In this document: positions 3,304 to 40,201 of the stretch, piece after piece
Layout: each line of letters begins with the position of its first letter
Position numbering within the stretch: position 1 is the stretch's first letter
Assembly: GCA_947630195.1 (NCBI GenBank)
Contig: CANRGQ010000001.1
Span: forward strand, 1 to 42,517
Source: an uncultured Bacilli bacterium
GTDB taxonomy: Bacteria > Bacillota_I > Bacilli_A > RF39 > UBA660
DNA: 42,517 nt
Reading direction: 5' to 3'
The notes under the pieces: generated by a model
The model's input: only the letters and a program-made list of their open reading frames with translations
What the model was told of the DNA's origin: nothing
Database searches by the model: none
Program-made: the position numbers and the translations under genes

Positions 3304-3689
3304 AAAAACACCTCCATTTTAAGTACAAAATAATGTACCAAGTTTTTATTTTTTTTATCTTATTTTTTTCTAAATTAAAGTACCAAGTCTTGTATATTTT
3401 TTTAGCAGGATAACTACGGCTGACAAACAACTTCCCAGTGGGAAGTTTAGCCTAAATTTAGGACTATTTTTATTATTACAATGGATGACATTTATTTTTA
3501 AGTATGACATTTGTATTAACAAACATTTTAAACTTTTTAAATTATTTTTAGTAATAATTATAAAAAGTATGCCATTTGTTATAACAAATGAATGACAAAT
3601 GTTATAACAAAATAGCTTTAAAAGTACCAAAAAAATTTAATAATTAAGTTTAAGATTAAAACCATCTTTAATTAAATTTTGTACCAATT
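3304..3689. promoter_or_regulatory. Candidate oriT / mob-operon control region
   Basis: Non-coding stretch just upstream of the accessory-protein/relaxase genes. It holds an 8-bp-stem hairpin AACTTCCC-AGT-GGGAAGTT (3429-3447) and the palindrome CCTAAATTTAGG (3451-3462). It also has an 18-bp perfect palindrome CATTTGTTATAACAAATG (3573-3590) with a second TGTTATAACA at 3600-3609, and ATGACATTT twice (3485-3493, 3504-3512). Confidence 0.5.
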
Positions 3690-4563: not shown

Positions 4564-6887
4564 TACTTGCCACTCGCAGTACCAAACAATTCGCTTTCTT
4601 CATTTCTTAAGTCAATGTGAATAGGTAAACGAGTGTCATGACTAATAACGAATAAACCATCACCTTTAGATGCTGTAGTTAAAAAATATTTTTCTGATTC
4701 GCTTAAGTTCATCATTTTTTGAACTGCATCAATTTCTTTCATCCCCTGTGCCATAACCATAATATAAGAACTATTATCAATTATAACTTGTCCATATCTT
4801 TCAATTTCCGGAGCAGTAAAGTCTATTAAATTTTGTGATAAAATCCACAAACTTCCATTCCTTTTTCTAATACACTTACTTGCTTTCTTTAGAAAATCTA
4901 TTCCCTGATGATTATTAGGGTCAATAATTAAGTGAGCTTCATCACATAATAAAATTACTTGTTCATCTTTACTTTTACAAATCTCGTTCCAACACCAAGA
5001 AAGTATATTAAAGAATTGGCTTTTTAATATACTAGTATCAGAATCTAGTAAACTATTAATATCTAAAACAATAAAGTCCGAGTTTTCTTTAACATTAATA
5101 CTAGAATGTCCGTTAAATATTTTGGCATCAGTAGTAACAACTTTTTTTAATAATGAGCATATTTTCTCTAATGATTCAATTACATTATTTGGCTCTTTAT
5201 TATCTTTAGCTGTTTTTAAATTAGAGAGTAATTTATTATATAAATCCTCCATAATAGGGTAGTCCTTACTGGTTAATTTGGTAAGGTCAGTATTAAAATC
5301 TATGCCTTTATCTTTGTAAACTTCAATTAAAGCATCTTCAATTTTGGTTAATTCATAAGCACTTAAATCCTGTAAGTAATATTTAATAAATGTTCTGAAT
5401 GTTTGAAAATGTTTATTCAAATCACTGCTTGTTAAGTTTTTATCATCATCAGAGTCATCAGCTGTTTTTCGAACTTCTAATGGATTAATAATTCCTGATA
5501 ATCCTGTACCTGCATCAATCCAAACACCATTTAAAGACTCACACATTTCTTTTAATTCTCGTTCCGGATCAATGGCAATTATTTTTGTCCCTCTTGCCCA
5601 ATTACCTCTAATAATTTTCTTGATTAATGTAGATTTACCACATCCACTTTTACCAATTACAACTGCATTTGAATTATTCCTTTTATTAGTTCTTTTCCAT
5701 AAATCAAAGAATACAAGACTATTTAAACTATTATGACCTAAAATAAGAGAGTCACCACCATCTTGTAAATTTTGAAAAACAAAAGGAAATGTTGATGCTA
5801 ATGTAAGCATAGGCATATATATTCCATATTGCTTTTCTAAATCAGTATATAGGGTAGGTAAGCACATTTTTAATCCTCTTTCTTGTTCAAATAAAAGATT
5901 AGTGCCATATAATCCACAGCCGGTTAAAGTATCTTTTAAGTCTTTACAATTGCGTTCCAAACTTTCTTTAGAATCACCATAAACTAAAAAGCACACTGTC
6001 AGTTTAGCAAACCTTTCGTGTTCTCTATCAATCCGATTAACTAAATCCGTATAATCATCTAATTTATTATTTAGAATAATTTGGTCATTATAATCAGATA
6101 CATTTATCATTTTAGATTTTGTTTCGGAAATGCTTTTTTTAAGAGTTCGAGATACTTCGGCAGTATCAATAGGACTTATGGTCATGACCATCCTAGTATT
6201 ATTTACATTAGAAACAGCTCCAAGCCAACCGGCTTGAACATAAGATGAATAAGTAACGAGTGTTACTACACTCATATAAGCATCGCCCATAATTAGGTCT
6301 CTTTCATTAAATTTTAAACCTCTTGGAGCGATTTTTTCTTTAAATGTTCTAGTTATACCAGTAGCATCATTTTTAAAAGTTTCGAGAGTATTTAAAGGAT
6401 TAAGAATTATATAAATTAAATCTCGCCACTCTTCACTTGTAATAATAGAACTAGTAAGCCCAATTGATGAGAAATCAACTATTAAATCATTTATTTTTTG
6501 TTTTAATATTTGTTCATTTTCTTGGCTTTCTTCTAGTATTAAATAAAACTCTCTATTAACTACTTGTTTTTGAGAAACTAAAGAATTTACATAATCTAAA
6601 TCCTCCTCTAAAATTTTTTCTTTATTTTTATTGCTTTCTTGTTTTATTTTAGTATTTAATACATTTATATTATCATCTAAAATAACTGGTTTATCAATGC
6701 TTAAAATTTTAAAAGGGTAATCAATAGAATTTAAAACCTTTTTAAGTTCTAAAACTTTTAACTCTTGCTCTTGGTCAAATAATAAAAATATATTAATTGA
6801 GCCAATTTTAATTCCTCCCACAATCCGATTATTATCTAAATATAGATAATTATTCCAAACATCTTGAAAGGGAAGAAAGTTTAACAT
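4563..6887 (-). CDS. VirB4-family conjugative transfer ATPase (Tn916 Orf16 / PrgJ / TcpF-like)
   Basis: 774 aa with Walker A GKSGCGKST and Walker B ILLCDEAH, of typical Gram-positive VirB4 size. The ATG at 6887 has no SD. An in-frame ATT at 6920 lies 7 nt after GGAGG and may be the true start. Confidence 0.9.
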   Translation of the reverse strand: MLNFLPFQDVWNNYLYLDNNRIVGGIKIGSINIFLLFDQEQELKVLELKKVLNSIDYPFKILSIDKPVILDDNINVLNTKIKQESNKNKEKILEEDLDYVNSLVSQKQVVNREFYLILEESQENEQILKQKINDLIVDFSSIGLTSSIITSEEWRDLIYIILNPLNTLETFKNDATGITRTFKEKIAPRGLKFNERDLIMGDAYMSVVTLVTYSSYVQAGWLGAVSNVNNTRMVMTISPIDTAEVSRTLKKSISETKSKMINVSDYNDQIILNNKLDDYTDLVNRIDREHERFAKLTVCFLVYGDSKESLERNCKDLKDTLTGCGLYGTNLLFEQERGLKMCLPTLYTDLEKQYGIYMPMLTLASTFPFVFQNLQDGGDSLILGHNSLNSLVFFDLWKRTNKRNNSNAVVIGKSGCGKSTLIKKIIRGNWARGTKIIAIDPERELKEMCESLNGVWIDAGTGLSGIINPLEVRKTADDSDDDKNLTSSDLNKHFQTFRTFIKYYLQDLSAYELTKIEDALIEVYKDKGIDFNTDLTKLTSKDYPIMEDLYNKLLSNLKTAKDNKEPNNVIESLEKICSLLKKVVTTDAKIFNGHSSINVKENSDFIVLDINSLLDSDTSILKSQFFNILSWCWNEICKSKDEQVILLCDEAHLIIDPNNHQGIDFLKKASKCIRKRNGSLWILSQNLIDFTAPEIERYGQVIIDNSSYIMVMAQGMKEIDAVQKMMNLSESEKYFLTTASKGDGLFVISHDTRLPIHIDLRNEESELFGTASGK

Positions 6888-6919
6888 TGTTTTTTGTTCA
6901 CGTTTAATAGATTTTGTAA

Positions 6920-7153
6920 TTATTTAACCTCCAAACTATGCATAAATTTTTCAATTAATTTACTAGCCTCTTTATTGTTTGAATCAACATTATTTAAATC
7001 ATAGCAAGATAAAGTAAAGGCTATTAATTGTCTTACATATTCTGATAAAGTAAGTTTATTTTTAAAAGCAATACTTCTTAATTTATCCTTTGATTTTTTA
7101 TCTATATTAACTTTAATGATGGTATCATATAGTTTTAAACGATTACTTGTCAT
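6920..7153 (-). CDS. Small RHH-like hypothetical protein
   Basis: 77 aa. KSKDKLRSIAFKNKLTLSEYVRQLI resembles a ribbon-helix-helix core. Confidence 0.5.
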   Translation of the reverse strand: MTSNRLKLYDTIIKVNIDKKSKDKLRSIAFKNKLTLSEYVRQLIAFTLSCYDLNNVDSNNKEASKLIEKFMHSLEVK

Positions 7154-7493
7154 TAATACCTCGGCTTTCCTTATAATTATTTACTCCAAACTTATCGTAT
7201 TCTTTTAATATTCCCATATTAACAATAGCCACTGGAACTTCAATATTATTGAATGGTGCAAATCCTGTTATTTCTTTTATTATTTTAGCCTTTTTTAATA
7301 TATTAATTAATCCATTATTTACAACATAAGGGTCTAAAAAAACTTTCCCATCATCAAGATAAGCTGTATTAATATTTATGGTGATATCATGGCTTTCACT
7401 TTTATTAATATATTTTAATCGTAGCCTACCATTATGATAATGAGAAACCTTAATGTTATAAATTTTACTATTAAATTTTATTTTTTTCCTAAT
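7143..7493 (-). CDS. DUF4313-like conjugative-element protein with an apparent ATT start
   Basis: Not in the track (no ATG/GTG/TTG start). A 116-codon open frame reads (I)RKKIKFNSKIYNIKVSHYHNGRLRLKYINKSESHDITININTAYLDDGKVFLDPYVVNNGLINILKKAKIIKEITGFAPFNNIEVPVAIVN.... From memory it resembles DUF4313 proteins of ICEs. The ATT lies 7 nt after GGGAGG (7501-7506). Confidence 0.45.
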   Translation of the reverse strand: MRKKIKFNSKIYNIKVSHYHNGRLRLKYINKSESHDITININTAYLDDGKVFLDPYVVNNGLINILKKAKIIKEITGFAPFNNIEVPVAIVNMGILKEYDKFGVNNYKESRGINDK

Positions 7494-7505
7494 ATTAAAA
7501 CCTCC

Positions 7506-8105
7506 CTATATTTTTATCTCTTGTATGGAATTATATTTTTCTTTATTAGTTATGAGTTCAATCATTTTGTCTTTATCTTTATATAGTTTTGATAACTCAT
7601 AGCAAACATCTTCAGCCTGTTTTAATGTTTCGCAATAAGCACAAAATATACTATTTTTAGAATCGTATTTTATTATAGATTTTAAGTCATTAAAATTAGA
7701 ATTTATATAATCTTTAAAAACTCTTTCATAGTCATGACCATTGCCAAGAATCGATTTTTTTGATTTTTTTATATAATCATCTTGGTCTAAACATATGGCA
7801 TAACCATTTTCACAGGCAAATATTTCAAAAGGTTTAAATGATTTGTTATACCAATTATTAAATTTTTGAAACTCTTCCTCTTTAAAAATGATATCATTTA
7901 AAAGTATTATTTTATATTTTTTCTTAAGTTCAAGACCTTTTTCCACAAATTCACAAAATGGTAAATCTAATATTGAGTTCATTTCTTCATAATATTTATC
8001 CACTACTTCTTTAGGACATTTTTCCTCTAAATAATTACTAATTGCATCAAATTTTCTATAACCCATACTACTTCTTACACTTTCATATTCTTGTAAAACA
8101 CTCAT
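7506..8105 (-). CDS. Hypothetical protein
   Basis: Track ORF 7506..8138. I prefer the ATG at 8105 (MSVLQEYESV...), which is preceded by GGGAGG (8114-8119). Confidence 0.6.
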   Translation of the reverse strand: MSVLQEYESVRSSMGYRKFDAISNYLEEKCPKEVVDKYYEEMNSILDLPFCEFVEKGLELKKKYKIILLNDIIFKEEEFQKFNNWYNKSFKPFEIFACENGYAICLDQDDYIKKSKKSILGNGHDYERVFKDYINSNFNDLKSIIKYDSKNSIFCAYCETLKQAEDVCYELSKLYKDKDKMIELITNKEKYNSIQEIKI

Positions 8106-8165
8106 TTTTAAAACCTCCCATCTAAATAAAAGATACAAAAGTTACTAACCTTTGTATCCTTTCCA

Positions 8166-8387
8166 TTATTTTTTTTCGTATGATATTTCTCTAATTAAAA
8201 TATCGGTAATTGTATCTTCTTTTGGATAGCCTCTATCTAGTTCATCTGCAACTTGTCTTATTAATTTTTCTAAAGTATGTCTTACATTCTTTGGAAGTTG
8301 ATTAAAATAAGAACCATAAAGGTCGTGTAGAATTTCATCTAAAACTAGCATAGCTGTACTAACTTCAAAAGTTTTTCTTTTTAGCAT
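8166..8387 (-). CDS. Hypothetical protein
   Basis: 73-aa ORF. GGAGGTG lies 7 nt upstream of the ATG. Confidence 0.55.
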   Translation of the reverse strand: MLKRKTFEVSTAMLVLDEILHDLYGSYFNQLPKNVRHTLEKLIRQVADELDRGYPKEDTITDILIREISYEKK

Positions 8388-8469
8388 TTAATATCACCTC
8401 CTTTTGTGTGATATTAAATCTTAATCAAGTGATATTCCAATCAATTTTAAATCCCTCAAATTGCAATAA

Positions 8470-8500
8470 TAAAAAAGATTACCAATTTCTTGATAATCTT
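8470..8500 (-). terminator. Rho-independent terminator splitting the transfer genes into two units
   Basis: On the minus strand, AAGATTATCAAGAAATTGGTAATCTT (7-bp stem) is followed by TTTTTT. It lies downstream of the PrgI-like gene. Confidence 0.5.
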
Positions 8501-8590
8501 AATTCAAAAAAAAGTGGTGTGTTTTTATAAAACCGATGTACTATTAAAAAATAGCATATTTTTTTAATTATTTCTATTTAAAACAATATA

Positions 8591-8872
8591 TTATTTATAT
8601 TTATACATTTTTTGACGTTTTTGGTATATAACAAATTTCTTTAAAAACATAAAAGTATTACCACCATTAGGTAGTGGAAATAGTAATAAGAAAGTTAATA
8701 TTGGAAAGAATGTGAAAAGAAAAATTTTTAAATAAAAATTACTTGTGAATAGTTGTAATAAATAACCTATACCACACATTAATGCCATTACTAATAATTC
8801 AACAAATCCAAATCCTTTAAATATTTCATTTTTTGTTTTTATATTTTTAGGAATAAGATATATCATGTCCAT
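8591..8872 (-). CDS. PrgI-family (VirB3-like; Tn916 Orf17-like) small membrane protein
   Basis: IYLIPKNIKTKNEIFKGFGFVELLV, two TM helices and the C-terminal FLKKFVIYQKRQKMYKYK match the PrgI/Orf17 layout as I recall it. Confidence 0.6.
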   Translation of the reverse strand: MDMIYLIPKNIKTKNEIFKGFGFVELLVMALMCGIGYLLQLFTSNFYLKIFLFTFFPILTFLLLFPLPNGGNTFMFLKKFVIYQKRQKMYKYK

Positions 8873-14652: not shown

Positions 14653-14937
14653 TTAATAATCTTTTTCTAAATATTGCTTTAAATAGTTTAAATCATTAAT
14701 TAAATCGTGTAAATTACACCGAAGTTCAATTCTTTTTTGATTATTATTAAATTTGTCACAAAAGTATTTTAAAATGGTTTCTATAAAAATAGGATTATTT
14801 ATATTTTCTTTTAAAATGTCTTTAGCATCATTTTTACTTAAATCATTTTTTTCGAAAATATTAAAATAGTCCAACATATCAAAAATGCGATTTAATAAAT
14901 TTTTGCTTTTTATAAAGTAATAATAATTCTTTTGCAT
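14653..14937 (-). CDS. Hypothetical protein
   Basis: 94-aa ORF tightly packed behind the upstream gene (1-nt gap). Confidence 0.5.
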   Translation of the reverse strand: MQKNYYYFIKSKNLLNRIFDMLDYFNIFEKNDLSKNDAKDILKENINNPIFIETILKYFCDKFNNNQKRIELRCNLHDLINDLNYLKQYLEKDY

Positions 14938-14938
14938 T

Positions 14939-15331
14939 TTATATTTTTATATCCTTATTTATATATGTGGCATCACTTACTATCTCTTCGATATCACAAT
15001 CACTATAATCAACTGCACTATAAAAATCAAGATTTTCATTTAAATACTTTTGAGTTTCATTAACAATTGATTTAATATCAGTTATATTACAAATATCAAT
15101 TAAATAATTATTAATGAATATATTTACTCGATAAACAAAGTCACCAACTTTAGAATAAAATAAATCGTTATCTAAAACAAAGTTATTTCTAAATTTACTA
15201 TAAAAGGTATTATGTAGATTTTTATCAAATATTACTTGCTTAATTAAATTACAATTTTTAAGGGGAATATTTTCTACTTTTTCTTGATGTAGAATCTCTT
15301 TAATAATTTTATCAAAACTTTTTCTTTTCAT
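14939..15331 (-). CDS. Hypothetical protein
   Basis: 130-aa ORF. Its ATG overlaps the stop (TAATG) of the unannotated small membrane ORF upstream. Confidence 0.5.
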   Translation of the reverse strand: MKRKSFDKIIKEILHQEKVENIPLKNCNLIKQVIFDKNLHNTFYSKFRNNFVLDNDLFYSKVGDFVYRVNIFINNYLIDICNITDIKSIVNETQKYLNENLDFYSAVDYSDCDIEEIVSDATYINKDIKI

Positions 15332-15632: not shown

Positions 15633-16460
15633 TTAATATTCTAGTGATATTTTTAGCTGTACACCATTTTCTAATCTCTTTTTAATGATTTCACAATATT
15701 TGCTAGATAATTCAATTCCTATCCATTTTCTATTTAATACTTCACAGCCTAGTAGAGTAGAGCCACTGCCACTTGTAAAATCCAATACTATTTCATTTTC
15801 TTTAGTATAAGTTGAAATTAGATATTCCATAAGATTAATAGGTTTTTGCGTAGGATGATACAATATAGCCTCTCTTGGAAACTGAATTATATTTCTAGGG
15901 TAGTTACTAAATTCTTGGATGCTTTCAAATTTTTTGTCTGACTTTTTTTCTCGTAAATAGTTAACACTTTTTTTAATTGTTTTTATATTAACTGATATTA
16001 ATCCCTGTGGGTAATAGTTAATATGTTGTTTTGCACTAGAGTTTGCTTTGGCTTTAGAAAAAACCATAATATCTTCATAGCATCTTAAGGGTTGATATTT
16101 AGCTGTTTGAAAATTAGTAACTTGGGTTTTAATCCATTTCCAATCATAGCGATATAAGTTTAAATTACTCATCCTTAATTTACTAGAAAAAGGCTCATTA
16201 CCAAACAAAACAATAGCACCATTATCTTTAATGAGTTTTAATAACTTATCCCACATTTCATCAAACGGAATAATGTTATCCCAAGAGAAGTTAGTGACGG
16301 CATATGGTGGGTCAGTTATTATGGCATCCACTTTAACTCCATCTTTTATTAGTTCATCCATTACTTTTAAACAATCACCATTATATAAAACACCATTGTT
16401 GGTTGAATAGTATGGTTTACAAGTTATTTTATCACCTCCAATCCATTTATAAAAAAACAA
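15633..16460 (-). CDS. Beta-class N6-adenine/N4-cytosine DNA methyltransferase (orphan)
   Basis: DAIITDPPY (motif IV) precedes FTSGSGSTLLG (motif I, FxGxG), which is the beta-class order. No restriction endonuclease gene lies beside it. The track's TTG start has no SD. An in-frame ATA at 16427 lies 7 nt after GGAGG. Confidence 0.85.
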   Translation of the reverse strand: MFFYKWIGGDKITCKPYYSTNNGVLYNGDCLKVMDELIKDGVKVDAIITDPPYAVTNFSWDNIIPFDEMWDKLLKLIKDNGAIVLFGNEPFSSKLRMSNLNLYRYDWKWIKTQVTNFQTAKYQPLRCYEDIMVFSKAKANSSAKQHINYYPQGLISVNIKTIKKSVNYLREKKSDKKFESIQEFSNYPRNIIQFPREAILYHPTQKPINLMEYLISTYTKENEIVLDFTSGSGSTLLGCEVLNRKWIGIELSSKYCEIIKKRLENGVQLKISLEY

Positions 16461-16937
16461 TTAATTCGTTGAACTAATTGTCTTTTTGCGTTTATATACT
16501 GCTTTATCATCTTTTTGAATTAAATTGAAATGTAATGCTACTTTAACATAGCAACTTCTTTTAATTTGCCTTGTCGTTTTTAAGGATTTTGCAATCGCAT
16601 CAGCCATTTCTTCATCAGTTAATCTTTGCTCGATACCATATTTAAATATAGATTTTTCATCATCGGTTAAAGTTGCTTTAAAATTTTTAACTTTAATATT
16701 AAATTTTTTAATCTCATTTAATAGCTCTTCTCGTTTAATAAGAACTGATTGAGTGGGGTTTGAAACAGAATGGGTATCTGATATGACAACTTCTTTAATA
16801 GTTGATGTTGCTTTGCCAAAGTAATTTTTAGCGAGAAATACTTTATAATTGTATTCATCCCATTTTTTGTAAATTCTTTTTGAAAGTTCTCTTAAATAAA
16901 ACTTATTAACATATTCCTTTGCGAGTAAAACTCTCAT
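16461..16937 (-). CDS. ArpU / sigma-70 region-4-like transcriptional regulator
   Basis: The C-terminal LTDDEKSIFKYGIEQRLTDEEMADAIAKSLKTTRQIKRSCYVKV resembles the region-4 HTH of ArpU/Orf7-like regulators of phages and ICEs. Confidence 0.5.
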   Translation of the reverse strand: MRVLLAKEYVNKFYLRELSKRIYKKWDEYNYKVFLAKNYFGKATSTIKEVVISDTHSVSNPTQSVLIKREELLNEIKKFNIKVKNFKATLTDDEKSIFKYGIEQRLTDEEMADAIAKSLKTTRQIKRSCYVKVALHFNLIQKDDKAVYKRKKTISSTN

Positions 16938-17282
16938 AATAAAATCCCCCGTTTCTTAAAAAGCCCCAACACTGCTAAAAACTTTTTAATTGAAAATTAT
17001 TTTACAATTTTTTTATAAAAAGTCAATAGTAATGTGGCGTTTTTGCATAAATTTTTGCATTTTCGCATCATGTGATAAAGCATAAAAAAATAGAAGTCTA
17101 CCTCCCCATTGGCGTAATCTTCTATTTATAACAATTGTATCATAACGAAATATAAAATAAAATATCCAAAAAATACTCAAACAAATTAGTAAATTTATAA
17201 CCATTTTATTTGGTAAAGCAATTACCCCGAAAAATGATAAAAAATTGTTTTTAAGTTATGTATTTAAAAGGAATACTACTTT

Positions 17283-18839
17283 TTATTTTTTATCTTTTTT
17301 GCTTTTGAGTTTATTTAAATCTTTCGTGTTTTGGTCGAAACAATTATTGATAATCTCACTTGCCGAAGTATTATCAATATAATCACATAAACTATCAAAA
17401 TTATGTTTAGCATTAGTTGTACTTTCAGAATAAATTGGTAATTGTAATGGAATGCTTTTGTGGTTATAATTAATTCTTAAACAAGTGATAAAACTATCCT
17501 TATATATATAAGGTTGTATTTTCATAACACTAAATTTAATATTAGATTTAATAAATTCTTTGGTATTACAAACTTTGCCGTTATCAAAGAAAAATTTTTC
17601 AGGATTAGTTTTTTTCGCTTTATGTGTAATTTTATAAAGTTTATTTAACTTTTTTTCAATAGGGGTGTTTAAAAAGTTAGTTTTGATTTTGAATATTAAA
17701 TCTTTAAATAATCCATCTTTAATAAAAGCCGGATCGAAGTTATCCATATTTATTTTAACTTTAACTATTTTATTATTTACTATCTTTTTGCCTTTAATAT
17801 ATTTTTTCTTTTTATTCAATAATTTTATAACATCATTTATATTAAGTTCAACAAAAGTAATAACCTCGTTTTTATCATAATTTTTAAAATCAAATAAAGA
17901 AATATTCTTTAAATCTAATAAATAATAATATTGAAATTCTCTAATTATATAATCTTTTTTAATAGTCTTATTGCATTTTCTTTTTTCAATAAATATCAAA
18001 TCATTATACGAAACATTTAAACCGGTTTCTTCTTTAATTTCTCTAATTCCATTTTTTAAAGTTTCGCCACTTATTAAATGACCTCCGGCAGTTATTTCTA
18101 ATAATTCTTTTGTATTAATATGATTATAAGCCGGATTTTTTAATTGAAAGAAAATTTTATTTTTCTTACTATTAATAATGAAACAGCCAAATACTTTATG
18201 CCAATAACCTAATTGATGAGCCATTGATTTTTCACAATATCCCAACAAGTTCTCTTTGGAATCATAAATATCTATGTATTCAACTTTTTGACTTTTGCCT
18301 TTTTTAAATCTTTTTATAAAACTATTAGCATCAGTAAGCATTGATTTGAATTCTTTAGATAGATTTAAATTATATTGTTTGGCAATTTGAAATGTAATGA
18401 TAAAAATTTTAAATATCCGGTCTTTAACAAAGTCATAACTATTATTAAATCCAAAACGATTTTTTTTAAACCGACAATCATTAATTTCCATTATTGCCTC
18501 AGTTAATTGTCCAAGTAAAATAGTGATACCATTTATATCTTTACAATCATAATTTGAATAGTCTTTGATTTCATACATATTTATACCTAAATTATTAGCA
18601 AGATTTATTAATTGTAAAATAACATCAGATAACTCATCACCTAAATTATTGATGATTCTTTTATCTTCTTTTGTAGAATCAATAGAATATAAAACATTAT
18701 ACACATGACCAACTTGCACATATAATTCGTTTAGGTATGTTTGCGAGTCCCATTTTTTAGATTTTGTTATATTAAAATCATCAACTAATTTTAATGCTTT
18801 TTTATAATTTTCATCTAAAAACTTTATAATTTCTTCCAT
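17283..18839 (-). CDS. MazG-like NTP pyrophosphohydrolase / Nudix hydrolase fusion with an unknown C-terminal domain
   Basis: The N-terminal LGDELSDVILQLINLANNLGINM is a MazG-type EExxE/D helix. The central GGHLISGETLKNGIREIKEETGLNV is a full Nudix box (GX5EX7REUXEEXGU). About 160 C-terminal aa are unassigned. The ATG lies 1 nt after the radical-SAM stop. Confidence 0.75.
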   Translation of the reverse strand: MEEIIKFLDENYKKALKLVDDFNITKSKKWDSQTYLNELYVQVGHVYNVLYSIDSTKEDKRIINNLGDELSDVILQLINLANNLGINMYEIKDYSNYDCKDINGITILLGQLTEAIMEINDCRFKKNRFGFNNSYDFVKDRIFKIFIITFQIAKQYNLNLSKEFKSMLTDANSFIKRFKKGKSQKVEYIDIYDSKENLLGYCEKSMAHQLGYWHKVFGCFIINSKKNKIFFQLKNPAYNHINTKELLEITAGGHLISGETLKNGIREIKEETGLNVSYNDLIFIEKRKCNKTIKKDYIIREFQYYYLLDLKNISLFDFKNYDKNEVITFVELNINDVIKLLNKKKKYIKGKKIVNNKIVKVKINMDNFDPAFIKDGLFKDLIFKIKTNFLNTPIEKKLNKLYKITHKAKKTNPEKFFFDNGKVCNTKEFIKSNIKFSVMKIQPYIYKDSFITCLRINYNHKSIPLQLPIYSESTTNAKHNFDSLCDYIDNTSASEIINNCFDQNTKDLNKLKSKKDKK

Positions 18840-18840
18840 G

Positions 18841-19962
18841 TTATTTGCCTACTTTCAAAATTAATGGTTTTGCCCCATTTAATGTAGAGTTATAGGTATC
18901 GGCAACAATATTATTAGTAGAAACATAAACTTTAACTCCTAAAACATAAGATAGATAAGAAAGGTCACTAATTTTTAAATCCAAATTTTTAATTTCTAAA
19001 CTTTGATATTCATCAAAAACTAATTCAGCTTGACTACTATTAAATCCTAATTTTTCTAATAAATTTAAGCATTGTTCAGTTATTTTGTTTTTATTAATAT
19101 TCTTATGACATTTTTTACATCTTTCTCTTTGCTCTTGGCTACAATGATTATAATTTAAACACTCTTGTGTACCATAATATTGAGTTGATGGTCTTTTTAA
19201 TTTGGTATTAAGTCCACAAGTATTAGTTTGAAATATTTGTTGTGGATGTTGGTAGCCCTTACTAAAATAATTCCAAGCAGAGTCGGTCCAAACACAATTT
19301 GCTTTTAAGCAAGATTCTCGATTATCTTTTATTGCATCCCAAAAGTCTATTTTATCAATAAAAGTTTCAATTAAGGCAAGACCGGTTGTTACTGATACAT
19401 CCGTATAAGGATTAACATTATCAAGTATTTCCTTTATTTTATCAGCATTTGAATTGGCAGGTAAAAAAGGTCTAAAATAATGAATAACGTCAATATTGTT
19501 TTCTTTTAATTTTTTGAAATTATTTAAAAGAGCATTTTCAGATATGCTAGGCTCATAATCTCTGCCTAAACCGGAATAACTTATATAGAATATAACATTT
19601 ATACCTTTTCTTTTTAAATCTAAAACTTTTTTGATAACAATATTAGGAATTGCACATTTAGTAACAATAACTAAATCGTTTTTAACATTATGATTTACTA
19701 ATTCATCAAGTAATTCAAATAGATAACTAATATTATCTAAATTAACAAAAGGGTCAGTATTTGGTAATAAACAAACAGGTATTTTTTCATCATAATATTT
19801 ATATTGCAATAATTTTTCTACTGCCTCTTTTGGGGTAGCAATTTGAGTAGGACAAACTTTGTTGCTATCATTAGCTTGTAATAAACAATACTTACATCTA
19901 TTTGGGCAACCTACAATTGAATTAATTGCTAACCAACTTGAATGCATTTCGATAACTTCCAT
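18841..19962 (-). CDS. Radical SAM enzyme (SplB/COG1533-like architecture)
   Basis: GCPNRCKYC (CxxxCxxC) lies near the N-terminus. A Cys-rich stretch CGLNT...CLNYNHCSQEQRERCKKC follows later. I prefer the ATG at 19962 (MEVIEMHSS), which is preceded by GAGGTGG; the track's GTG at 19971 lies inside that SD. Confidence 0.85.
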   Translation of the reverse strand: MEVIEMHSSWLAINSIVGCPNRCKYCLLQANDSNKVCPTQIATPKEAVEKLLQYKYYDEKIPVCLLPNTDPFVNLDNISYLFELLDELVNHNVKNDLVIVTKCAIPNIVIKKVLDLKRKGINVIFYISYSGLGRDYEPSISENALLNNFKKLKENNIDVIHYFRPFLPANSNADKIKEILDNVNPYTDVSVTTGLALIETFIDKIDFWDAIKDNRESCLKANCVWTDSAWNYFSKGYQHPQQIFQTNTCGLNTKLKRPSTQYYGTQECLNYNHCSQEQRERCKKCHKNINKNKITEQCLNLLEKLGFNSSQAELVFDEYQSLEIKNLDLKISDLSYLSYVLGVKVYVSTNNIVADTYNSTLNGAKPLILKVGK

Positions 19963-20051
19963 CAAAACCACCTCTTAATTGGGGTTATGATAACATAGTT
20001 ATACTTTAAATATAATTAAGCAATTTTACAAAGATATTTGCAATAGTGCAT

Positions 20052-20073
20052 AAAAAAAACTAGCAAGTGCTAG
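20052..20073 (-). terminator. Rho-independent terminator after the LysR gene
   Basis: On the minus strand, CTAGCACTTGCTAG (6-bp stem, includes the TAG stop) is followed by eight T. Confidence 0.6.
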
Positions 20074-20963
20074 TCTATATCTTTAACATTAAACTCTTTT
20101 AACAACTCTTTAGCTGATGGCGAAATGTTTTCTCTTATAAAGGCAATAGATATATCTTTTTTAAGGTCTATATCAAAAGTTAAGATATCTTTATCTTTTA
20201 GAGTGAATCTTTTTGGAAGTAATCCAAAACCTAATCCGCTTTTAACATATTCTAAAATTGAATCGTAACTATTTACCTCTAATGATAAATTCATTTCTAT
20301 ATTTTGTTTTTTTAATAAGGAATTAAAATCGTATCTTTCTTTCTTGGCTGTAATAGGTAATATTAAAGGTAAGTTATCCAAATCTTTTAAACTATTAATA
20401 TTAAGGTTATAATGTTTTTTAGAATAAGCGATACAAAAAGTATCGACATTAATATTTTGCACTTCTATTTTTTTAGAAGTTTGGTCAACATCAATAATGG
20501 TGTCTATAATAAAGTCCATTGAAAATTTAGAAAGTTTATCATATAGGTCATTAGTGGAAGAATTAACAAATTTAATAACAACATTTGGGTATTTGGATTT
20601 AAACTTTTTAATCTTATCTATAACAATATCGTTTTCAACATCTTTGGAAACACCAATCGTTAACTTACCGTTATTTAAATCTTTATTTTGAAGAAAATTT
20701 TTCTCTGTAATATATAATAAATTGTATGCTTTCTCAAATCCCTCAAATAATTCTTTTCCATCCTCGGTCAATTCAAATTTTTGGGAACTAATATTAAATA
20801 GTTTTGTTCCATAGGCTTTCTCTAAATTACTGATGTTTCTTGAAATATTAGACCTATCAATGTTTAATTTTTTAGTGGCTTCAGTAATACTTTTAGATTG
20901 ACCTACTACGACAAAAGTCCTTATGAAGTTTAAATTAATGGTGGGTATTTGTATTTGCTTCAT
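20070..20963 (-). CDS. LysR-family transcriptional regulator
   Basis: 297 aa. The N-terminal winged HTH reads LNFIRTFVVVGQSKSITEATKKLNIDRSNISRNISNLEKAYGTKLF. The C-terminal substrate-binding domain has typical length. Confidence 0.9.
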   Translation of the reverse strand: MKQIQIPTINLNFIRTFVVVGQSKSITEATKKLNIDRSNISRNISNLEKAYGTKLFNISSQKFELTEDGKELFEGFEKAYNLLYITEKNFLQNKDLNNGKLTIGVSKDVENDIVIDKIKKFKSKYPNVVIKFVNSSTNDLYDKLSKFSMDFIIDTIIDVDQTSKKIEVQNINVDTFCIAYSKKHYNLNINSLKDLDNLPLILPITAKKERYDFNSLLKKQNIEMNLSLEVNSYDSILEYVKSGLGFGLLPKRFTLKDKDILTFDIDLKKDISIAFIRENISPSAKELLKEFNVKDID

Positions 20964-21247
20964 TATAAGCCCTCCTCAAATTACTAAATATGATAAATCA
21001 GAGAGCATAAAAAGTCAATAATAATTTATGCAAAAATGCAAAAAAGATATGTTTAAATTGTAAAAATGCAACATAACTATTAAAAAAGATTAAAAGAGTG
21101 TAAATAAATTATTTAATGCTTTTATCGATATGTTCTTTTTGAATTAATATACATCTTTTGATTTTTCTATGGAAATTACAACAAAAAATGGTTTTTTTAT
21201 TGGCTTAGATTATGGCAAATTATAGTAATTGTAGCATTGCTGAGTTA

Positions 21248-21368: not shown

Positions 21369-22055
21369 ATGGAAAAGAAAAACACAATGTTACTAACAGT
21401 AATCGCAGTAGCCACTTTATTAGTAGCTGTAGTGGGAGCAACATTTGCATATTTTAGTTTAAGTACAACTGGAGGTTCAAATACGACTGCAACAATTAGT
21501 ACTCCTAAAGTTGGTCAAGCATTAATTAGTACAAAGCAAGAATCTTTACAATTAACATTAACAGCACAAGATATGGATAAAAGTAAAGCAGGCACAACAT
21601 ATTATGCTTCAACAGATGGAGCAACAAAGGATAGTGCTACTCCAATTCCAATAGCTGAAGTAACATTATCAGAAGCACAAGATACAGCAAAATATTCATG
21701 TACTACAACTGTCAAAGTGACTGCTGATAATACTGAAGAAGATACTAACATGTTAAGTAGCTTGGAAAAAGGATGGGCTAAATTAACACTAGGTGGAAGT
21801 GTAACTGCAGATATAGATATTGCTGATTTAAAAGACACTAATACTCGAGAAGAAACAGGAACATATGAATTAGAAGTTAGTAGTGCCGGTTCAGTAACTA
21901 AAGATATTTTAAGCGCAGTATTATCATTTACAAATACAGCTGATACTGAAGAAGTACCTAATAGTGGTAACCAAAATGCAGTAGCTGGTAAGACATTAAA
22001 GGTTAAAGTAGAAGTTAAAGAAGGAACATGTACTTTAGCATCAGATGGTGAATAA
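21369..22055 (+). CDS. Secreted T/S-rich protein with SipW-cognate (TasA/camelysin-type) signal peptide, paralog 1
   Basis: In MEKKNTMLLTVIAVATLLVAVVGATFAYFS, the G-x-T-F-A-Y-F-S motif matches the TasA/CalY signal class. AGAGGAGG lies before the ATG. Confidence 0.7.
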   Translation: MEKKNTMLLTVIAVATLLVAVVGATFAYFSLSTTGGSNTTATISTPKVGQALISTKQESLQLTLTAQDMDKSKAGTTYYASTDGATKDSATPIPIAEVTLSEAQDTAKYSCTTTVKVTADNTEEDTNMLSSLEKGWAKLTLGGSVTADIDIADLKDTNTREETGTYELEVSSAGSVTKDILSAVLSFTNTADTEEVPNSGNQNAVAGKTLKVKVEVKEGTCTLASDGE

Positions 22056-22112: not shown

Positions 22113-22841
22113 ATGGAAAAGAAAAATACAATGTTACTAACAGTAATCGCAGTAGCAACATTATTAGTAGCTGTTGTGGGAGCAACATTTGCGTTCTTTA
22201 GTTTACAAGTGTCTGGAAATAGTACAACAGATGCTACTGTTACAGCTGCTAAAGTTGGTACAGCAACAATAAGTACTGTGGAAGAAAATAAAACTTTAAA
22301 ATTAAGTTTAACAGCTGAAGACATGGCTAAATATACAGATGATAAAGTGTATTATGCTTCAGTAGATGGTACTGCACCCGGAGATTCAACTCCGATAAAA
22401 ATTGCTAATATAGCTTATTCAGGTGGCGAAGCAAATACAACTTACAAGTGTCCCGTTCAAGTAAACGTATCAGTTAGCGGAACTATGCAAGAACATTTAC
22501 AAGAAGGATGGACTCAATTAATACTTCAAGGTGATGCAGTAAATGTAAGTGCTAGTCAATCTCAAAGTAGTGTTGCTGGAACTACTATACAAGATGGTAA
22601 TTTGCAAGTTGATTTGAAAACAGCATTAGCAGTAGGACCACAACAAGGTAGTAAAAAAGTAACTTTTAAAGGTAATGTTACAGTAACTGGTCCAGAAATG
22701 GAAGCTAAAAATATCCTTAGTGCATCATTATCATTAACAAATAAAAATAATGTTGACCAAAGTGCGATTGCCAATAGTGATTTAATTGTTACAATCACTG
22801 TTGAACCAGATGGTGCTTGTACTTTACAAACGACTGATTAG
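22113..22841 (+). CDS. Secreted protein with SipW-cognate (TasA/camelysin-type) signal peptide, paralog 2
   Basis: The first 27 aa are identical to paralog 1 (..VVGATFAFFS). Shared islands include LTAxDMxK, YYASxDG, GWxxLxLxG, ILSAxLSxTN and a C-terminal CTL. Confidence 0.7.
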   Translation: MEKKNTMLLTVIAVATLLVAVVGATFAFFSLQVSGNSTTDATVTAAKVGTATISTVEENKTLKLSLTAEDMAKYTDDKVYYASVDGTAPGDSTPIKIANIAYSGGEANTTYKCPVQVNVSVSGTMQEHLQEGWTQLILQGDAVNVSASQSQSSVAGTTIQDGNLQVDLKTALAVGPQQGSKKVTFKGNVTVTGPEMEAKNILSASLSLTNKNNVDQSAIANSDLIVTITVEPDGACTLQTTD

Positions 22842-36726: not shown

Positions 36727-36749
36727 GAAGTAGTATATTATAATAAATT

Positions 36750-36884
36750 TTAAGAAAAGAAACCGAAGACAGTAGGGAAGGAAACTTTTAATAATCCTAC
36801 CGAGGGGAAATTTAAATAACTTATGTTTTTTGAAGCTTCCCTTAACGCGGAAGCTTTTCTTGAAAAATAAAATAAGGAGGAAAT
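36750..36884 (+). promoter_or_regulatory. rplJ 5' leader (L10-leader-like attenuator region)
   Basis: A structured non-coding gap before rplJ. The hairpin GAAGCTTCC-CTTAACGC-GGAAGCTTT (36832-36857) runs into a T-rich tail, and a GTAGG/CCTAC pairing lies upstream. Position and form fit the Firmicute L10 leader, but no covariance model was run. Confidence 0.45.
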
Positions 36885-37386: not shown

Positions 37387-37758
37387 ATGGCAAAATTAAC
37401 AAGAGATGAATTTATAAGTTCATTAAAAGAAATGACGGTTCTTGAAATAAAAGAATTAGTAGATGCAATGCAAGAGGAATTAGGAATTAATCCTTATGCT
37501 GTTGCTGTTGCTGCTGCTCCAGCTGCTGGTGCCGCTGAAGATGCTGGTTCTGCTACTAAGACTGTTGTTTTAAAGAATGCTGGTGGCAATAAAATTGCTG
37601 TTATTAAAATCATTAAAGAAATTACTGGTTTAGGTTTAGTTGAAGCTAAAGGACTTGCTGATAATGGTGGAAACATTAAAGAAAATGTTCCTGCTGATGA
37701 AGCAAAACAAATTGCTGACCAATTAACTGAAGCTGGTGCTGAAGTAGAACTTGCTTAA
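37387..37758 (+). CDS. rplL: 50S ribosomal protein L7/L12
   Basis: An Ala-rich hinge AVAVAAAPAAGAAE is followed by KIAVIKIIKEITGLGLVEAKGLAD. Confidence 0.95.
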   Translation: MAKLTRDEFISSLKEMTVLEIKELVDAMQEELGINPYAVAVAAAPAAGAAEDAGSATKTVVLKNAGGNKIAVIKIIKEITGLGLVEAKGLADNGGNIKENVPADEAKQIADQLTEAGAEVELA

Positions 37759-37779
37759 TTAAAAAGTTTAGAAAAAGTT

Positions 37780-37806
37780 GTTAACCTTATGGTTAACGCT
37801 TTTTTT
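37780..37806 (+). terminator. Rho-independent terminator after rplL
   Basis: GTTAACC-TTAT-GGTTAAC followed by GCTTTTTTT. Confidence 0.7.
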
Positions 37807-37859
37807 GACTATTTATATGAATTGTGCTAGAATACTTCTTAACAAAAGGGGATTTTGAG

Positions 37860-39299
37860 ATGAAAGAAGTTAAAATTAAAGATATAACAATTAGATATGA
37901 TAAGGAAGAAATAGAAGAAATAATAAATATTGTTAAAAATAATTATTCTGTAATTTATGATTGTTTGCCTTCTAAAAAGATTATTAGTTTACTAGAAACT
38001 ACCGATGAAGATATAGAGTATGTTTCTGATTTTGATGAGTTTTTTACCGATATTGTTATAGCTAATTTTAATTATTATGAAAAAGAGAAAAAACCTTTAG
38101 AAGATATAAGTACTTATTTATTACTTTTGATAAATAAATTAGATAAAATGGATGTTTCTCATTTTGAAATTCCTGCTAGTCTTCCTCTTGATAAACTTTA
38201 TTTTGTAATGGCCAAAGAATATTTTAAGGAAAATGGGACAATTAATTCATTAATTGAACATTTAAAAAATCCCATCAATAAAGAGGATGTAATTAGTTGG
38301 TTTACGGATAAAATGCGCTATCCTACATATGAATATTTATTAAATGAACAAGTTAAATGTTTAGAATCTTTAGATTTTGAATATTTAGATAATATAAATG
38401 ATATTACAGAAAGATTTTTTGAACAAATGGTATCTGACTTAAAATATAATGATTTAGAAAAAGAAGAAGAATTACCTGATATATCTTTTGAAGAGATAAG
38501 TGCCTTATTTAAAGAGTTTTTAAAAGTAGTCAAGGCTCCAGAAGAATGGCTACAACTATATCAAGAATTAAAAGATAATGGTTTCATTTATTATAACGAG
38601 CCAGAAGAGGGAAAAACTTCTGAATGTTATGTAGATAAAGACGGTCATTTAAAAATTATGATTTATGGTAAAGGACTTATGGCATTTAAAATTCTTTGCC
38701 ATGAATTTGGTCATTATGTATCTATGTATAAAGGTAATAAGAATATTAAACCTTCTATTTCTGAATTTCCTAGTATTTTCTTAGAATACTTGGCCATAGG
38801 TTTTTTAAAGTTTAAAGGTTATAATGATAATATTTTAAATAATTTAGAAAAAAGGCGGATGCTTAATAATTTTGATATCATGTGTTTTACTTATCCTATT
38901 TTAAATGATATAGCGGATTTGTATAAAAATAAAGAAGATTTTATTTCAAGGAAAAAGGCTAAAGCCCAAAAAATATGCGAAGATATTGAGCTAAAATATA
39001 AAATAGATTATCCTAAAGAATTAAGTTATAATCCAGAAGAAACATTAAATAAGGAAGTTGATTTTGCAACGATGCTTATTATTAAAAATCCCACGATAAT
39101 TTTAGAAAGTTATCAATATTTATTAGGAACTTATTTAGCTAGAGAGACGGTTATTAAATTTCATGAAGATGCTAGTATTTTAAATAAAGTTTTTGAAATT
39201 ATCAATAATTTAGATAATGTTAATTTAAAAGATATTATTGAGTATTTAAACTTACCAGATATTTTAAAAAATTCGCAATTTATTTCAAAACTTGCTTAG
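37860..39299 (+). CDS. HExxH zinc-metallopeptidase-like protein (M3/PepF-like motif HEFGH)
   Basis: Track ORF 37824..39299. I prefer the ATG at 37860 (MKEVKIKD) after GGGGA. LCHEFGHY lies at about two-thirds of the length. The rest is unrecognised. Confidence 0.6.
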   Translation: MKEVKIKDITIRYDKEEIEEIINIVKNNYSVIYDCLPSKKIISLLETTDEDIEYVSDFDEFFTDIVIANFNYYEKEKKPLEDISTYLLLLINKLDKMDVSHFEIPASLPLDKLYFVMAKEYFKENGTINSLIEHLKNPINKEDVISWFTDKMRYPTYEYLLNEQVKCLESLDFEYLDNINDITERFFEQMVSDLKYNDLEKEEELPDISFEEISALFKEFLKVVKAPEEWLQLYQELKDNGFIYYNEPEEGKTSECYVDKDGHLKIMIYGKGLMAFKILCHEFGHYVSMYKGNKNIKPSISEFPSIFLEYLAIGFLKFKGYNDNILNNLEKRRMLNNFDIMCFTYPILNDIADLYKNKEDFISRKKAKAQKICEDIELKYKIDYPKELSYNPEETLNKEVDFATMLIIKNPTIILESYQYLLGTYLARETVIKFHEDASILNKVFEIINNLDNVNLKDIIEYLNLPDILKNSQFISKLA

Positions 39300-39406
39300 G
39301 ATATAAAAAAATAAATAATTGTAAAAATATAAGGAATATAAGTAAACTATGGCAAAGTAGTTTGCTTTTTTAGGCCATTTAATTTATAATAATTATTGGT
39401 GATACT

Positions 39407-39676: not shown

Positions 39677-39685
39677 GTGTATTAT

Positions 39686-40060: not shown

Positions 40061-40078
40061 AAAAATGTATAAAAAATA

Positions 40079-40108
40079 TTGACAAAACATATATTAAAAT
40101 GGTATATT
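40079..40108 (+). promoter_or_regulatory. Promoter: TTGACA, 18-nt spacer, (TGg)TATATT, for rpsL-rpsG-fusA
   Basis: Read directly, ~95 nt upstream of the rpsL ATG. Confidence 0.6.
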
Positions 40109-40201
40109 AATAACGCATTTTATTTAGGTTCTACCTTGGTAGAACTTAATTTAAAAGAAATTATGACACACTTGGGTTAGTGTTAATGGAAAGGAGAAAA
40201 T

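Follow-up and report, generated by a model that had tools for sequence, protein, structure and literature searches.

The stretch of DNA analysed here (the window) is 42,517 nt long and represents positions 1 to 42,517 of contig CANRGQ010000001.1, assembly GCA_947630195.1, from an uncultured Bacilli bacterium. Its minus strand carries a pair of adjacent open reading frames (ORFs), one encoding a radical S-adenosylmethionine (rSAM) protein and the next a fusion of a MazG-like domain, a Nudix domain and a C-terminal domain, within an integrative and conjugative element (ICE). The pair, the regulator gene upstream and the first gene downstream are as follows.

20070–20963, minus strand: LysR-type regulator, 297 aa (Pfam HTH_1 3.2e-14, LysR_substrate 1.3e-19)
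18841–19962, minus strand: rSAM gene of an unnamed family, 373 aa (PF04055 match)
17283–18839, minus strand: fusion gene, MazG-like/Nudix/C-terminal domain, 518 aa (ORF and Pfam)
16461–16937, minus strand: sigma-like protein, 158 aa, with a weak sigma-70 region-4-like helix-turn-helix (HTH) (Sigma70_r4 E = 0.03; TIGR02937 E = 9e-4)

The mechanically called rSAM ORF spans 18841–19971 and opens with GTG; translation probably begins instead at the ATG at 19962, which has an AAGAGG ribosome-binding site 8 nt ahead and gives a predicted product of 373 aa. The junction of the two genes reads TAA-c-ATG, with a spacer of one base, in agreement with an earlier note made on this DNA from its letters alone, which had placed a 518-aa fusion one nucleotide after a 373-aa rSAM protein. 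Tight junctions are kept in relatives, as ATGA overlaps (n = 13), as TAATG overlaps (n = 12) and, in most others, with distances of 3 nt or less. Both ORFs are real genes rather than chance ORFs, since the rSAM has 248 homologues and the fusion 97, at identities of 39–99%. A census of loci using tblastn and hidden Markov model (HMM) searches returned 35 related loci with a complete rSAM gene (loci are referred to by L numbers), and in all 35 the next reading frame opens with a MazG-like domain, so that the conservation of the pair as neighbours, which the earlier note had asked about, extends to every related locus. Of these 35 loci, 31 have a LysR gene ahead of the rSAM; in three of the other four the contig extends for under 2.6 kb on that side. 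The sigma-like gene is found downstream of the fusion gene in 28 (tblastn).

The rSAM protein matches Pfam PF04055 (Radical_SAM) with 37.8 bits against a cut-off of 29.5, and its cluster motif CPNRCKYC (C19-x3-C23-x2-C26) is invariant in the alignments. The wider-family alignment has a second set of invariant cysteines—C249, C268, C274 and C282—which probably form an auxiliary Fe-S or metal site, and further invariant polar residues that include K102, H161 and R164. An AlphaFold2 model (predicted local distance difference test score [pLDDT] 76.7, predicted template modelling score 0.81) gives the protein the partial TIM-barrel core of the radical SAM superfamily; compared with the PDB using Foldseek, it matches pyruvate formate-lyase activase with probability 1.00 and viperin chains with 0.97–0.99, at template modelling (TM) scores of 0.31–0.42. 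Only generic rSAM cores were matched in the PDB and BFVD, those in BFVD being phage rSAM proteins.

No named NCBIfam family fits the rSAM, the best scores being 14–15 bits against cut-offs of 199–410; TIGR04470 (radical SAM mobile pair protein B), for example, is a weak match with 14.2 bits against 410. No PADLOC-DB v2 model matches it at E<=1, and no viperin-family match was obtained from either NCBIfam or PADLOC. Profiles of the rSAM family recovered, among PDB sequences, solely designed TIM barrels and the cluster motif of spore photoproduct lyase (SPL), the latter in an alignment limited to profile residues 21–35 (E = 0.37–1.8), and SPL is outside the top 50 Foldseek matches. By all of these searches the rSAM appears to belong to no named family, and to no housekeeping or cofactor-maturase family. 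It does resemble viperin and pVip in being a radical SAM protein with a nucleotide as its supposed substrate and with relatives on mobile elements and in conflict-like contexts. The viperin structures 6q2p and 5vsl are among its best matches, but the similarity is generic (TM 0.31–0.36, identity 12–18%) and amounts to no close match that takes in the CTP-binding extension at the viperin C-terminus; viperins, moreover, lack both the four extra invariant cysteines and the obligate MazG-like partner.

The rSAM is also the best-conserved gene of the element. Between the window and L001 the identities are 70% for the rSAM, 60% for the fusion, 45% for LysR, 42% for the sigma-like protein, 37% for the SpaA adhesin and 26% for VirB4; across species the rSAM is 68–76% identical, versus 50–63% for the fusion, 45–59% for LysR, 32–56% for the adhesin and approximately 26% for VirB4.

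The model of the fusion protein (pLDDT 89.3) has four parts, at residues 1–180, 181–345, 346–390 and about 390–518, which are encoded as follows.

18300–18839, minus strand: MazG-like all-helical domain, residues 1–180 (sub-threshold Pfam match, PDB profile)
17805–18299, minus strand: Nudix domain of the isopentenyl diphosphate (IPP) isomerase/YfcD structural type, residues 181–345 (Pfam, Foldseek)
17286–17804, minus strand: helical linker (346–390) and alpha/beta domain of about 125 aa (~390–518), together residues 346–518 (secondary structure of the model)

The MazG-like domain is all-helical in the model (pLDDT ~90) and scores 20.6 bits with PF12643 at residues 64–93, under the cut-off of 27. 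Its motif LGDELSDVILQL is found at residues 66–77; this, CPNRCKYC and the Nudix box are all present as the earlier note had quoted them. A profile of the domain matches 4qgp (E = 0.015), 5ie9 (0.016), YpjD (0.066) and DCTPP1 (0.2–0.3) in the PDB. The invariant residues are E38, Q42, H45, E58, D68, E69 and D72, of which D68-E69-x-x-D72 aligns with the EExxD helix of 4qgp, 5ie9, 2gta and 2oie. With about 180 aa the domain is approximately twice the size of the canonical all-alpha nucleoside triphosphate (NTP) pyrophosphatase domain, and its first acidic motif is reduced, with E38...Q42 instead of ExxE.

The Nudix assignment is above threshold (PF00293, 24.7 bits against 21.1, residues 214–337), and the Nudix box GGHLISGETLKNGIREIKEETGL at residues 252–274 is complete, the positions G252-G253-H-L-I-S-G-E259-x6-R266-E267-I-K-E270-E271-T-G273-L being 90–100% conserved. 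A Foldseek search with the whole fusion gave 151 matches at E<=0.001, and all of the best 50 listed are Nudix-fold proteins. The closest folds are 2i6k (E = 6.6e-8), YfcD (2fkb) and DR0079 (2o5f), so that type 1 IPP isomerase (IDI) and YfcD are the best matches. In a by-eye alignment with the E. coli IDI sequence, the IDI metal ligands are matched by His208, His214, His254 and Glu301, whereas the catalytic Cys67 is replaced by Gly253 and Glu116 by Gln303. The IPP isomerase profile NF002995 scores only 17.6 bits against a cut-off of 127. We predict that the domain is a hydrolase and not an isomerase, because the catalytic Cys is a glycine and the Nudix box is a full one of the hydrolase type.

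The residues beyond the Nudix domain, which the earlier note had treated as a single domain of about 160 aa, are divided in the model into a linker of about 45 aa and an alpha/beta domain that matches nothing in Pfam or the PDB. A match of this domain to 8fzz (DUF1851, E = 0.021) covers 31 residues and is regarded as chance. The domain is encoded by its own ORF in L005 and L012–14 and is missing from L032 and L034; in L034, moreover, the MazG-like and Nudix domains are encoded by separate ORFs. With PADLOC-DB v2 the sole match of the fusion is PDC-S07 (E = 0.025), within the Nudix part, and the PHROGs matches of the two proteins—phrog_13321 (unknown function) and a generic Nudix phrog—are not informative.

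One explanation of these proteins would be ordinary housekeeping, with a cofactor-maturase rSAM and two house-cleaning hydrolases residing in an ICE by chance. The nearest Nudix folds, IPP isomerase and YfcD, speak for such an explanation, as does a Patescibacteria genome (described below) in which the genes are found amid housekeeping genes. It is nevertheless largely excluded: the rSAM scores far below every named NCBIfam family, the IDI catalytic Cys and Glu116 are Gly and Gln in the Nudix domain, and the fixed position in the ICE, the domain fusions and the common operator, all described below, speak against chance. The housekeeping or cofactor-maturase rSAM that the earlier note had considered was thus not found in the pair (NCBIfam, PADLOC and PDB profiles), and nor was an IPP isomerase (the catalytic Cys being lacking), the note having named isopentenyl diphosphate as a possible ordinary substrate of the fusion.

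The left 17 kb of the window is a conjugation module, wholly on the minus strand, encoding a MobL relaxase, NikA, an M23 peptidase, a VirB4/TraG-type P-loop ATPase, PrgI, TrbL_4, a sortase and a 1023-aa SpaA/TED adhesin, together with an N6/N4 DNA methyltransferase and the 158-aa sigma-like protein. The right end belongs to the chromosome and encodes ribosomal proteins L11, L1, S12 and S7 along with an L10 leader. An integrase is absent from the window, and the element extends past the left window end; relatives have upstream recombinases, such as a serine recombinase in L005 and a tyrosine integrase in L001. The contigs bearing homologues share a gene order of recombinase or integrase with HTH regulators and small ORFs, LysR, rSAM, fusion, a sigma-like protein of about 155 aa, a protein of about 200 aa, SpaA adhesin, sortase, SSB, type IV secretion system (T4SS) pilin and VirB4, and the same order is held even where the fusion identity is only 39–43%. 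The pair is therefore located inside the ICE as a core syntenic part of it, and not beside it, as the earlier note's phrase "next to" had implied. Thirty-one of the loci come from a scan of one genome per GTDB species, which covers close relatives only; all are from gut metagenome-assembled genomes (MAGs) labelled Bacilli or Tenericutes, the hosts sampled being human, mouse, rabbit and goat.

The intergenic regions around the pair contain a series of boxes and promoter-like elements.

21059–21070 and 21029–21040, minus strand: operator boxes ahead of the LysR promoter, degenerate TGCATTTTTACA and TGCATTTTTGCA respectively, 30 nt apart (sequence read)
20990–21018, minus strand: LysR promoter, TTGACT, 17 nt, TATCAT (consensus match only, 10/12)
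20057–20076, minus strand: terminator-like hairpin and T-run over the LysR stop codon, 20070–20072 (terminator scan)
20019–20050, minus strand: rSAM operator region, with box TGCACTATTGCA at 20039–20050 and degenerate box TGTAAAATTGCT at 20019–20030, 20 nt apart
19987–19995, minus strand: extended -10 element TGTTATCAT of the rSAM operon (conserved in relatives)
17056–17067 and 17036–17047, minus strand: boxes TGCGAAAATGCA and TGCAAAAACGCC before the sigma-like promoter, 20 nt apart
16999–17026, minus strand: promoter-like site of the sigma-like gene, TTGACT, 16 nt, TAAAAT, with TG two bases above the -10 (consensus scan)

The consensus of the boxes, TGCAAAWTTGCA, is a palindrome. Its exact form, TGCA-N4-TGCA, occurs twice in the 42.5-kb window (0.33 expected), once upstream of the rSAM and once upstream of LysR, and the box at 17056–17067 is a one-mismatch copy. 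In related loci (21 loci, 422 kb), 54 of the 59 exact boxes are inside the promoter regions of LysR, the rSAM operon and the sigma-like gene. Ahead of LysR, the box at 21029–21040 stands 10 nt upstream of the -35, and the hairpin at 20057–20076 would separate the LysR transcript from the rSAM operon. Relatives have a box about 90 nt ahead of the rSAM start codon, and a conserved TTGTAAAATTG, which holds a second, degenerate box, comes next; of 24 distinct upstream sequences, 21 contain TGnTAnnAT at a distance of 32–38 nt from the start codon. The promoter-like site of the sigma-like gene is likewise kept in an alignment of 20 intergenic regions. All of the boxes are upstream of or over the -35 region, at about -45 to -80 from the likely transcription starts, which is typical of LysR-type activators.

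Because a common box is found at three promoters, the pair is probably in one regulon with LysR and with the sigma-like gene, which comes directly after the pair and stands at the head of the row of adhesin and T4SS genes. We infer that LysR is the protein that binds TGCAAAWTTGCA, since it is the regulator adjoining the boxes in 31 of the 35 loci; the protein itself reaches no NCBIfam equivalog cut-off. LysR-type control is also found at the head of the ICEclc regulatory cascade, in TciR and BisR. The present ICE would be similar in this respect by description, and differs in that the regulator precedes an enzyme operon with the same operator.

Between the fusion and sigma-like genes, at 17080–17200 on the minus strand, TTGTTATAAATAGRA precedes a hairpin with a T-run, ahead of the operator boxes, and this arrangement is kept in 20 aligned loci; the region may be the terminator of the rSAM operon, a small RNA or an attenuator. 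Rfam gave no RNA element near the pair. A 63-aa ORF at 17013–17204 is probably not a gene, as it overlaps the conserved operator and promoter blocks.

This arrangement suggests a second explanation, that the adjacent LysR responds to a nucleotide-derived co-inducer which the enzymes synthesise or break down, and that the resulting feedback loop times the conjugation genes. In its fullest form the operon would make or remove a new nucleotide-derived LysR ligand by new rSAM chemistry, as a positive-feedback switch that commits the cell to conjugation, and a second messenger would then be encoded by a mobile element. A LysR gene beside an enzyme operon is the classical layout for such a system, and the same box at LysR (which suggests autoregulation), at the enzyme operon and at the sigma-like gene, in positions typical of activation, is consistent with it; Bacillales clusters with a major facilitator superfamily (MFS) exporter and nonribosomal peptide synthetase (NRPS) genes suggest, in addition, that a small molecule is released. 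Outside the ICE, however, the triad of rSAM, MazG-like and Nudix genes occurs without an adjoining LysR, with none at the Solibacillus and Patescibacteria loci and one 7 kb upstream in Paenibacillus. LysR may simply sense the supply of substrate, and any function exercised at the time of transfer would just as well be expected to be co-expressed with the transfer genes. We consider both the general and the fullest form rather unlikely.

An exhaustive search of 1.84 billion cluster representatives identified 364 relatives of the rSAM at E<=1e-3, of which 66 are at E<=1e-30, giving a family of about 360 clusters, formed at 50% identity, whose members come from Bacillota, Actinomycetota, Patescibacteria and further groups. 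In seven representatives (P0224, P0255, P0260, P0279, P0268, P0253 and P0257) a MazG-like domain follows the rSAM within one protein, and in two (P0244 and P0227) it precedes it. Distant homologues include fusions with a GalU-like nucleotidyltransferase, with a nucleoside-deoxyribosyltransferase-like domain, with TCAD9 and APH, and with TIR domains; the TIR parts match the ThsB, SAVED-TIR and PDC-S66 models of PADLOC, and the rSAM domains match none. Several genomic contexts are represented.

Paenibacillus and Solibacillus: orthologous clusters of Nudix, GalU-like transferase, rSAM, MazG-like, two unknown proteins (one P-loop) and phosphatase, with the triad as separate genes (Nudix 2.5e-45, MazG 1.2e-33)
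L051/L052, metagenomic: the same core, adjoining integrase, AurF and NRPS genes
Patescibacteria genome: rSAM-MazG fusion and Nudix amid housekeeping genes
L044 and L047, metagenomic: MazG-rSAM fusion, GT2 glycosyltransferases, glucose-1-phosphate cytidylyltransferase and a Nudix gene in each; L044 also has a HAD phosphatase and an acetyltransferase (a hexapeptide acetyltransferase being among such clusters), and L047 adjoins PrgI/VirB4 genes
Streptomyces chromosome arm: two dCTP-deaminase-like genes, methyltransferase, GalU-like transferase, rSAM, GT4-conflict glycosyltransferase, HAD and transposase
Streptomyces linear plasmids: GT4, class II aldolase, MurA, rSAM, Nudix and ABC transporter; these are 18 of the 24 plasmid records with a match

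From these fusions and neighbourhoods, the rSAM and the MazG-like domain would act as one unit, often with this type of Nudix domain, and the substrate would be a nucleotide or a nucleotide-diphospho-sugar. A phage origin is rejected, as there were no tblastn matches in 50,697 phage records and only two in 2.9 million viral contigs. A separate observation concerns L049 (6544–7893) and L050 (4566–5885), in which a second, full-scoring MurA (509 bits) is encoded directly upstream of the rSAM homologue; the Streptomyces plasmid cluster with MurA could be a small biosynthetic cluster that carries a copy of the target for self-resistance.

The GalU-like nucleotidyltransferase directly upstream of, or fused to, distant rSAMs raises the prospect of nucleotide-sugar tailoring, in which the rSAM would modify a UDP- or CDP-sugar for a surface glycan or a natural product, and the ICE would either alter the surface or adhesin for mating-pair formation or carry a useful cargo. 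The GT2 and GT4 glycosyltransferases, HAD phosphatases, hexapeptide acetyltransferase and glucose-1-phosphate cytidylyltransferase of distant clusters point the same way, and in the ICE itself a sortase-anchored SpaA/TED adhesin is encoded a few genes downstream. But the ICE version has neither the nucleotidyltransferase nor a glycosyltransferase, and its constant partner is MazG-like, which is not usual in sugar pathways; the tailoring explanation is improbable.

Pre-replicative modification of DNA bases or editing of the dNTP pool as a protection for transferred DNA is very unlikely. In such a scheme the dNMP to be modified by the rSAM would be produced from a dNTP by the MazG-like domain, and the unmodified form would be cleared by the Nudix domain. 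Enzymes of the MazG type do feed monophosphates to phage modified-base pathways, as with the T4 dCTPase and MazZ of the Z-genome phages. Some homologues carry the JGI label 'DNA repair photolyase', the cluster motif GCxxxCxYCFLQ at the N-terminus is shared between the rSAM family and the SPL/COG1533 'DNA repair photolyase' rSAMs, and the Streptomyces homologue has dCTP-deaminase-like genes and a methyltransferase gene among its neighbours. The SPL match is, however, to the 15-residue cluster motif only (E = 0.37), no kinase, polymerase or DNA-transglycosylase is found at the locus, and the module is near-absent from phages.

The TIR fusions bring in a role in defence or counter-defence, in which, with a logic like that of viperin, the rSAM would make a toxic or chain-terminating NTP analogue while the hydrolases protect the host pools; alternatively, the hydrolases would destroy immune signals or alarmones when the ICE enters. 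The fusions to a nucleoside-deoxyribosyltransferase-like domain or to TCAD9 and APH, the GT4-conflict glycosyltransferase and transposase that adjoin the Streptomyces homologue, and the recurrence of the family on ICEs, on Streptomyces linear plasmids and beside integrases all fit such a role, as does the orphan DNA methyltransferase inserted near the pair in this window only. There are also published parallels. Atd1, a phage MazG-like enzyme, acts in anti-TIR counter-defence, and mobile elements use such enzymes in conflicts; Ophion (OpnA rSAM, PHP and PRTase), from Gammaproteobacteria, is an rSAM-centred defence proposed to work via nucleotide modification, set apart by description in that its partners are PHP and PRTase rather than MazG-like and Nudix.

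Viperin is among the best Foldseek matches, but the likeness is generic (TM 0.36, E = 3e-3), and neither the two proteins nor the rSAM domains of the family match a PADLOC model. The neighbours are transfer genes and not defence genes, the position of the pair is fixed, syntenic, strongly conserved and co-regulated with transfer genes, unlike the patchy cargo of defence islands, the family is near-absent from phages, and in the Patescibacteria genome its neighbours are housekeeping genes. A defence role is possible, the domain fusions in distant relatives being the only basis for it, and we are inclined to doubt it. The earlier note had proposed a nucleotide-modifying defence module; a nucleotide-centred, conflict-like flavour is retained in the wider family (fusions, GT4-conflict neighbour, plasmids and ICEs), while the defence assignment itself fails to find a PADLOC match or defence neighbours. 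Nor does the pair look like the variable cargo that such a module would be, since it is a fixed part of the ICE core with an operator common to LysR and the head of the transfer operon.

We propose instead that the rSAM and fusion genes constitute a two-gene operon with translational coupling, fixed in the core of an ICE family in uncultured low-GC gut Bacilli, and that they encode a LysR-controlled, transfer-coupled unit in which an rSAM of a new family modifies an NTP or nucleoside diphosphate-linked compound and the MazG-like and Nudix domains cut a pyrophosphate bond; taken as a whole, we put the probability of this explanation at roughly 45%. The substrate of the unit would be a nucleoside triphosphate or else a compound joined to a nucleotide through a diphosphate, for instance a UDP-sugar, and the rSAM would alter it by 5'-deoxyadenosyl-radical chemistry. 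The MazG-like and Nudix domains would split the pyrophosphate bond of either the substrate or the product, which would supply the rSAM with a monophosphate in the one case and free the modified product in the other. LysR probably drives the rSAM operon through TGCAAAWTTGCA, so that the enzyme would be switched on together with conjugation.

The gene structure, domain content, conservation, fusions, synteny and common box are observed directly; the substrate class, the order of reactions, the binding of LysR to the box and the biological purpose are deduced from them. The nucleotide or nucleotide-sugar theme comes from the adjacent or fused GalU-like transferase, the TIR and nucleoside-deoxyribosyltransferase-like fusions, the near-invariant Nudix box and the invariant DExxD of the MazG-like domain. 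That domain is more likely to perform a step of the pathway than to act in house-cleaning, because it is an obligate and often fused partner of the rSAM. As to purpose, we rank conflict or establishment at the time of transfer first, followed by making or removing a LysR ligand, nucleotide-sugar tailoring and, last, modification of DNA or dNTPs.

A comparable logic is known from oxetanocin-A, for which plasmid-borne OxsB, a radical SAM enzyme, remodels a (deoxy)nucleotide and OxsA, a phosphohydrolase, trims phosphates. OxsB depends on cobalamin, OxsA belongs to the HD-domain enzymes, and the resemblance to the present pair is, by description, one of logic between different enzyme types. The earlier note had recognised no characterised pathway in the pair, and a full-text search of the literature likewise found no description of the rSAM/MazG/Nudix triad; its closest analogues in print are viperins, Ophion and Atd1. 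The components are of known superfamilies and the general logic is known, but they fit none of the specific families within those superfamilies with which they were compared.

Several points weigh against this proposal. No member of the family has an established substrate, product or activity, and the ICE-type loci are all from MAGs of uncultured organisms. The MazG assignment depends on sub-threshold scores (20.6 versus 27 bits; PDB profile E = 0.015), and, while D68-E69-x-x-D72 is invariant, the first acidic motif is only partly kept as E38...Q42; the domain could thus bind a nucleotide and not hydrolyse it. The Nudix domain is deleted in L012–14, and its catalytic residues are lost in P0210, the fusion homologue of L006/L007. 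It is not essential, since it is degenerate in the P0210 lineage and deleted in L012–14, and the constant part of the module is the rSAM and the MazG-like domain alone; the double sanitation by two hydrolases envisaged in the earlier note is accordingly not essential either. Distant homologues are accompanied by nucleotidyltransferase, kinase-like and glycosyltransferase genes that are missing from the ICE version, and the chemistry may therefore differ between contexts. Finally, some relatives carry Cro/CI-type regulators as well, in addition to LysR.

If the proposal of a transfer-coupled nucleotide-modifying unit holds, the approximately 360 clusters represent a new rSAM family with a constant MazG-like partner, from which new nucleotide or nucleotide-sugar chemistry is to be expected, and a family of conjugative elements of common uncultured gut bacteria has wired such an enzyme into the regulon of its transfer genes. 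It would then be asked whether nucleotide small-molecule chemistry aids the transfer, establishment or timing of mobile elements.

Other features of the element were noted downstream of the sigma-like gene.

15633–16460, minus strand: N6/N4 DNA methyltransferase
14939–15331, minus strand: small ORF
14653–14937, minus strand: small ORF

The methyltransferase and the two small ORFs have no counterpart in 38 related loci, and are an insertion specific to the element of the window, between the sigma-like and adhesin genes; the insertion site may be a slot for anti-restriction cargo. Insertions are also found elsewhere in relatives. In the ICE lineage represented by L002–L004, LysR and the rSAM are separated by an inserted GNAT acetyltransferase gene (8225–8746; 7994–8515 in L004). 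In L001 (MAG GCA_965311905.1) a diversity-generating retroelement with bAvd and reverse transcriptase, at 5688–7588, is directly upstream of the LysR-rSAM module, and the tyrosine integrase is further upstream.

Within the T4SS row of the window, a 210-aa protein with an Imm51 immunity-protein domain (4.3e-12) is encoded at 7506–8138, flanked by the genes for the VirB4-type ATPase and PrgI. A cluster of inverted repeats at 3508–3611 (CATTTGTATTAACAAA / TTTGTTATAACAAATG and TTTGTTATAACA / TGTTATAACAAA), in a 560-nt gap upstream of nikA and the relaxase gene, is a candidate origin of transfer (oriT), and the sole one found. Relaxase genes enter last in well-studied plasmids, and the pair would, if that is so here, be about 15–17 kb from the candidate oriT along the direction of entry; an argument from the leading region is not relied on.

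To the right of the LysR gene, 21369–22055 and 22113–22841 encode tandem paralogues without a Pfam match that have an identical 27-residue N-terminus, MEKKNTMLLTVIAVATLLVAVVGATFA, which we take to resemble a SipW-dependent signal peptide of the TasA/camelysin type. In the chromosomal part, the interval 37387–40612, which runs from a 123-aa ORF at 37387–37758 in the L7/L12 position to rpsL, is the usual place of rpoB and rpoC, and contains, beyond the 123-aa ORF, only ORFs of 491 aa and 127 aa, both without Pfam matches. The L10 leader RNA is located at 36745–36869.

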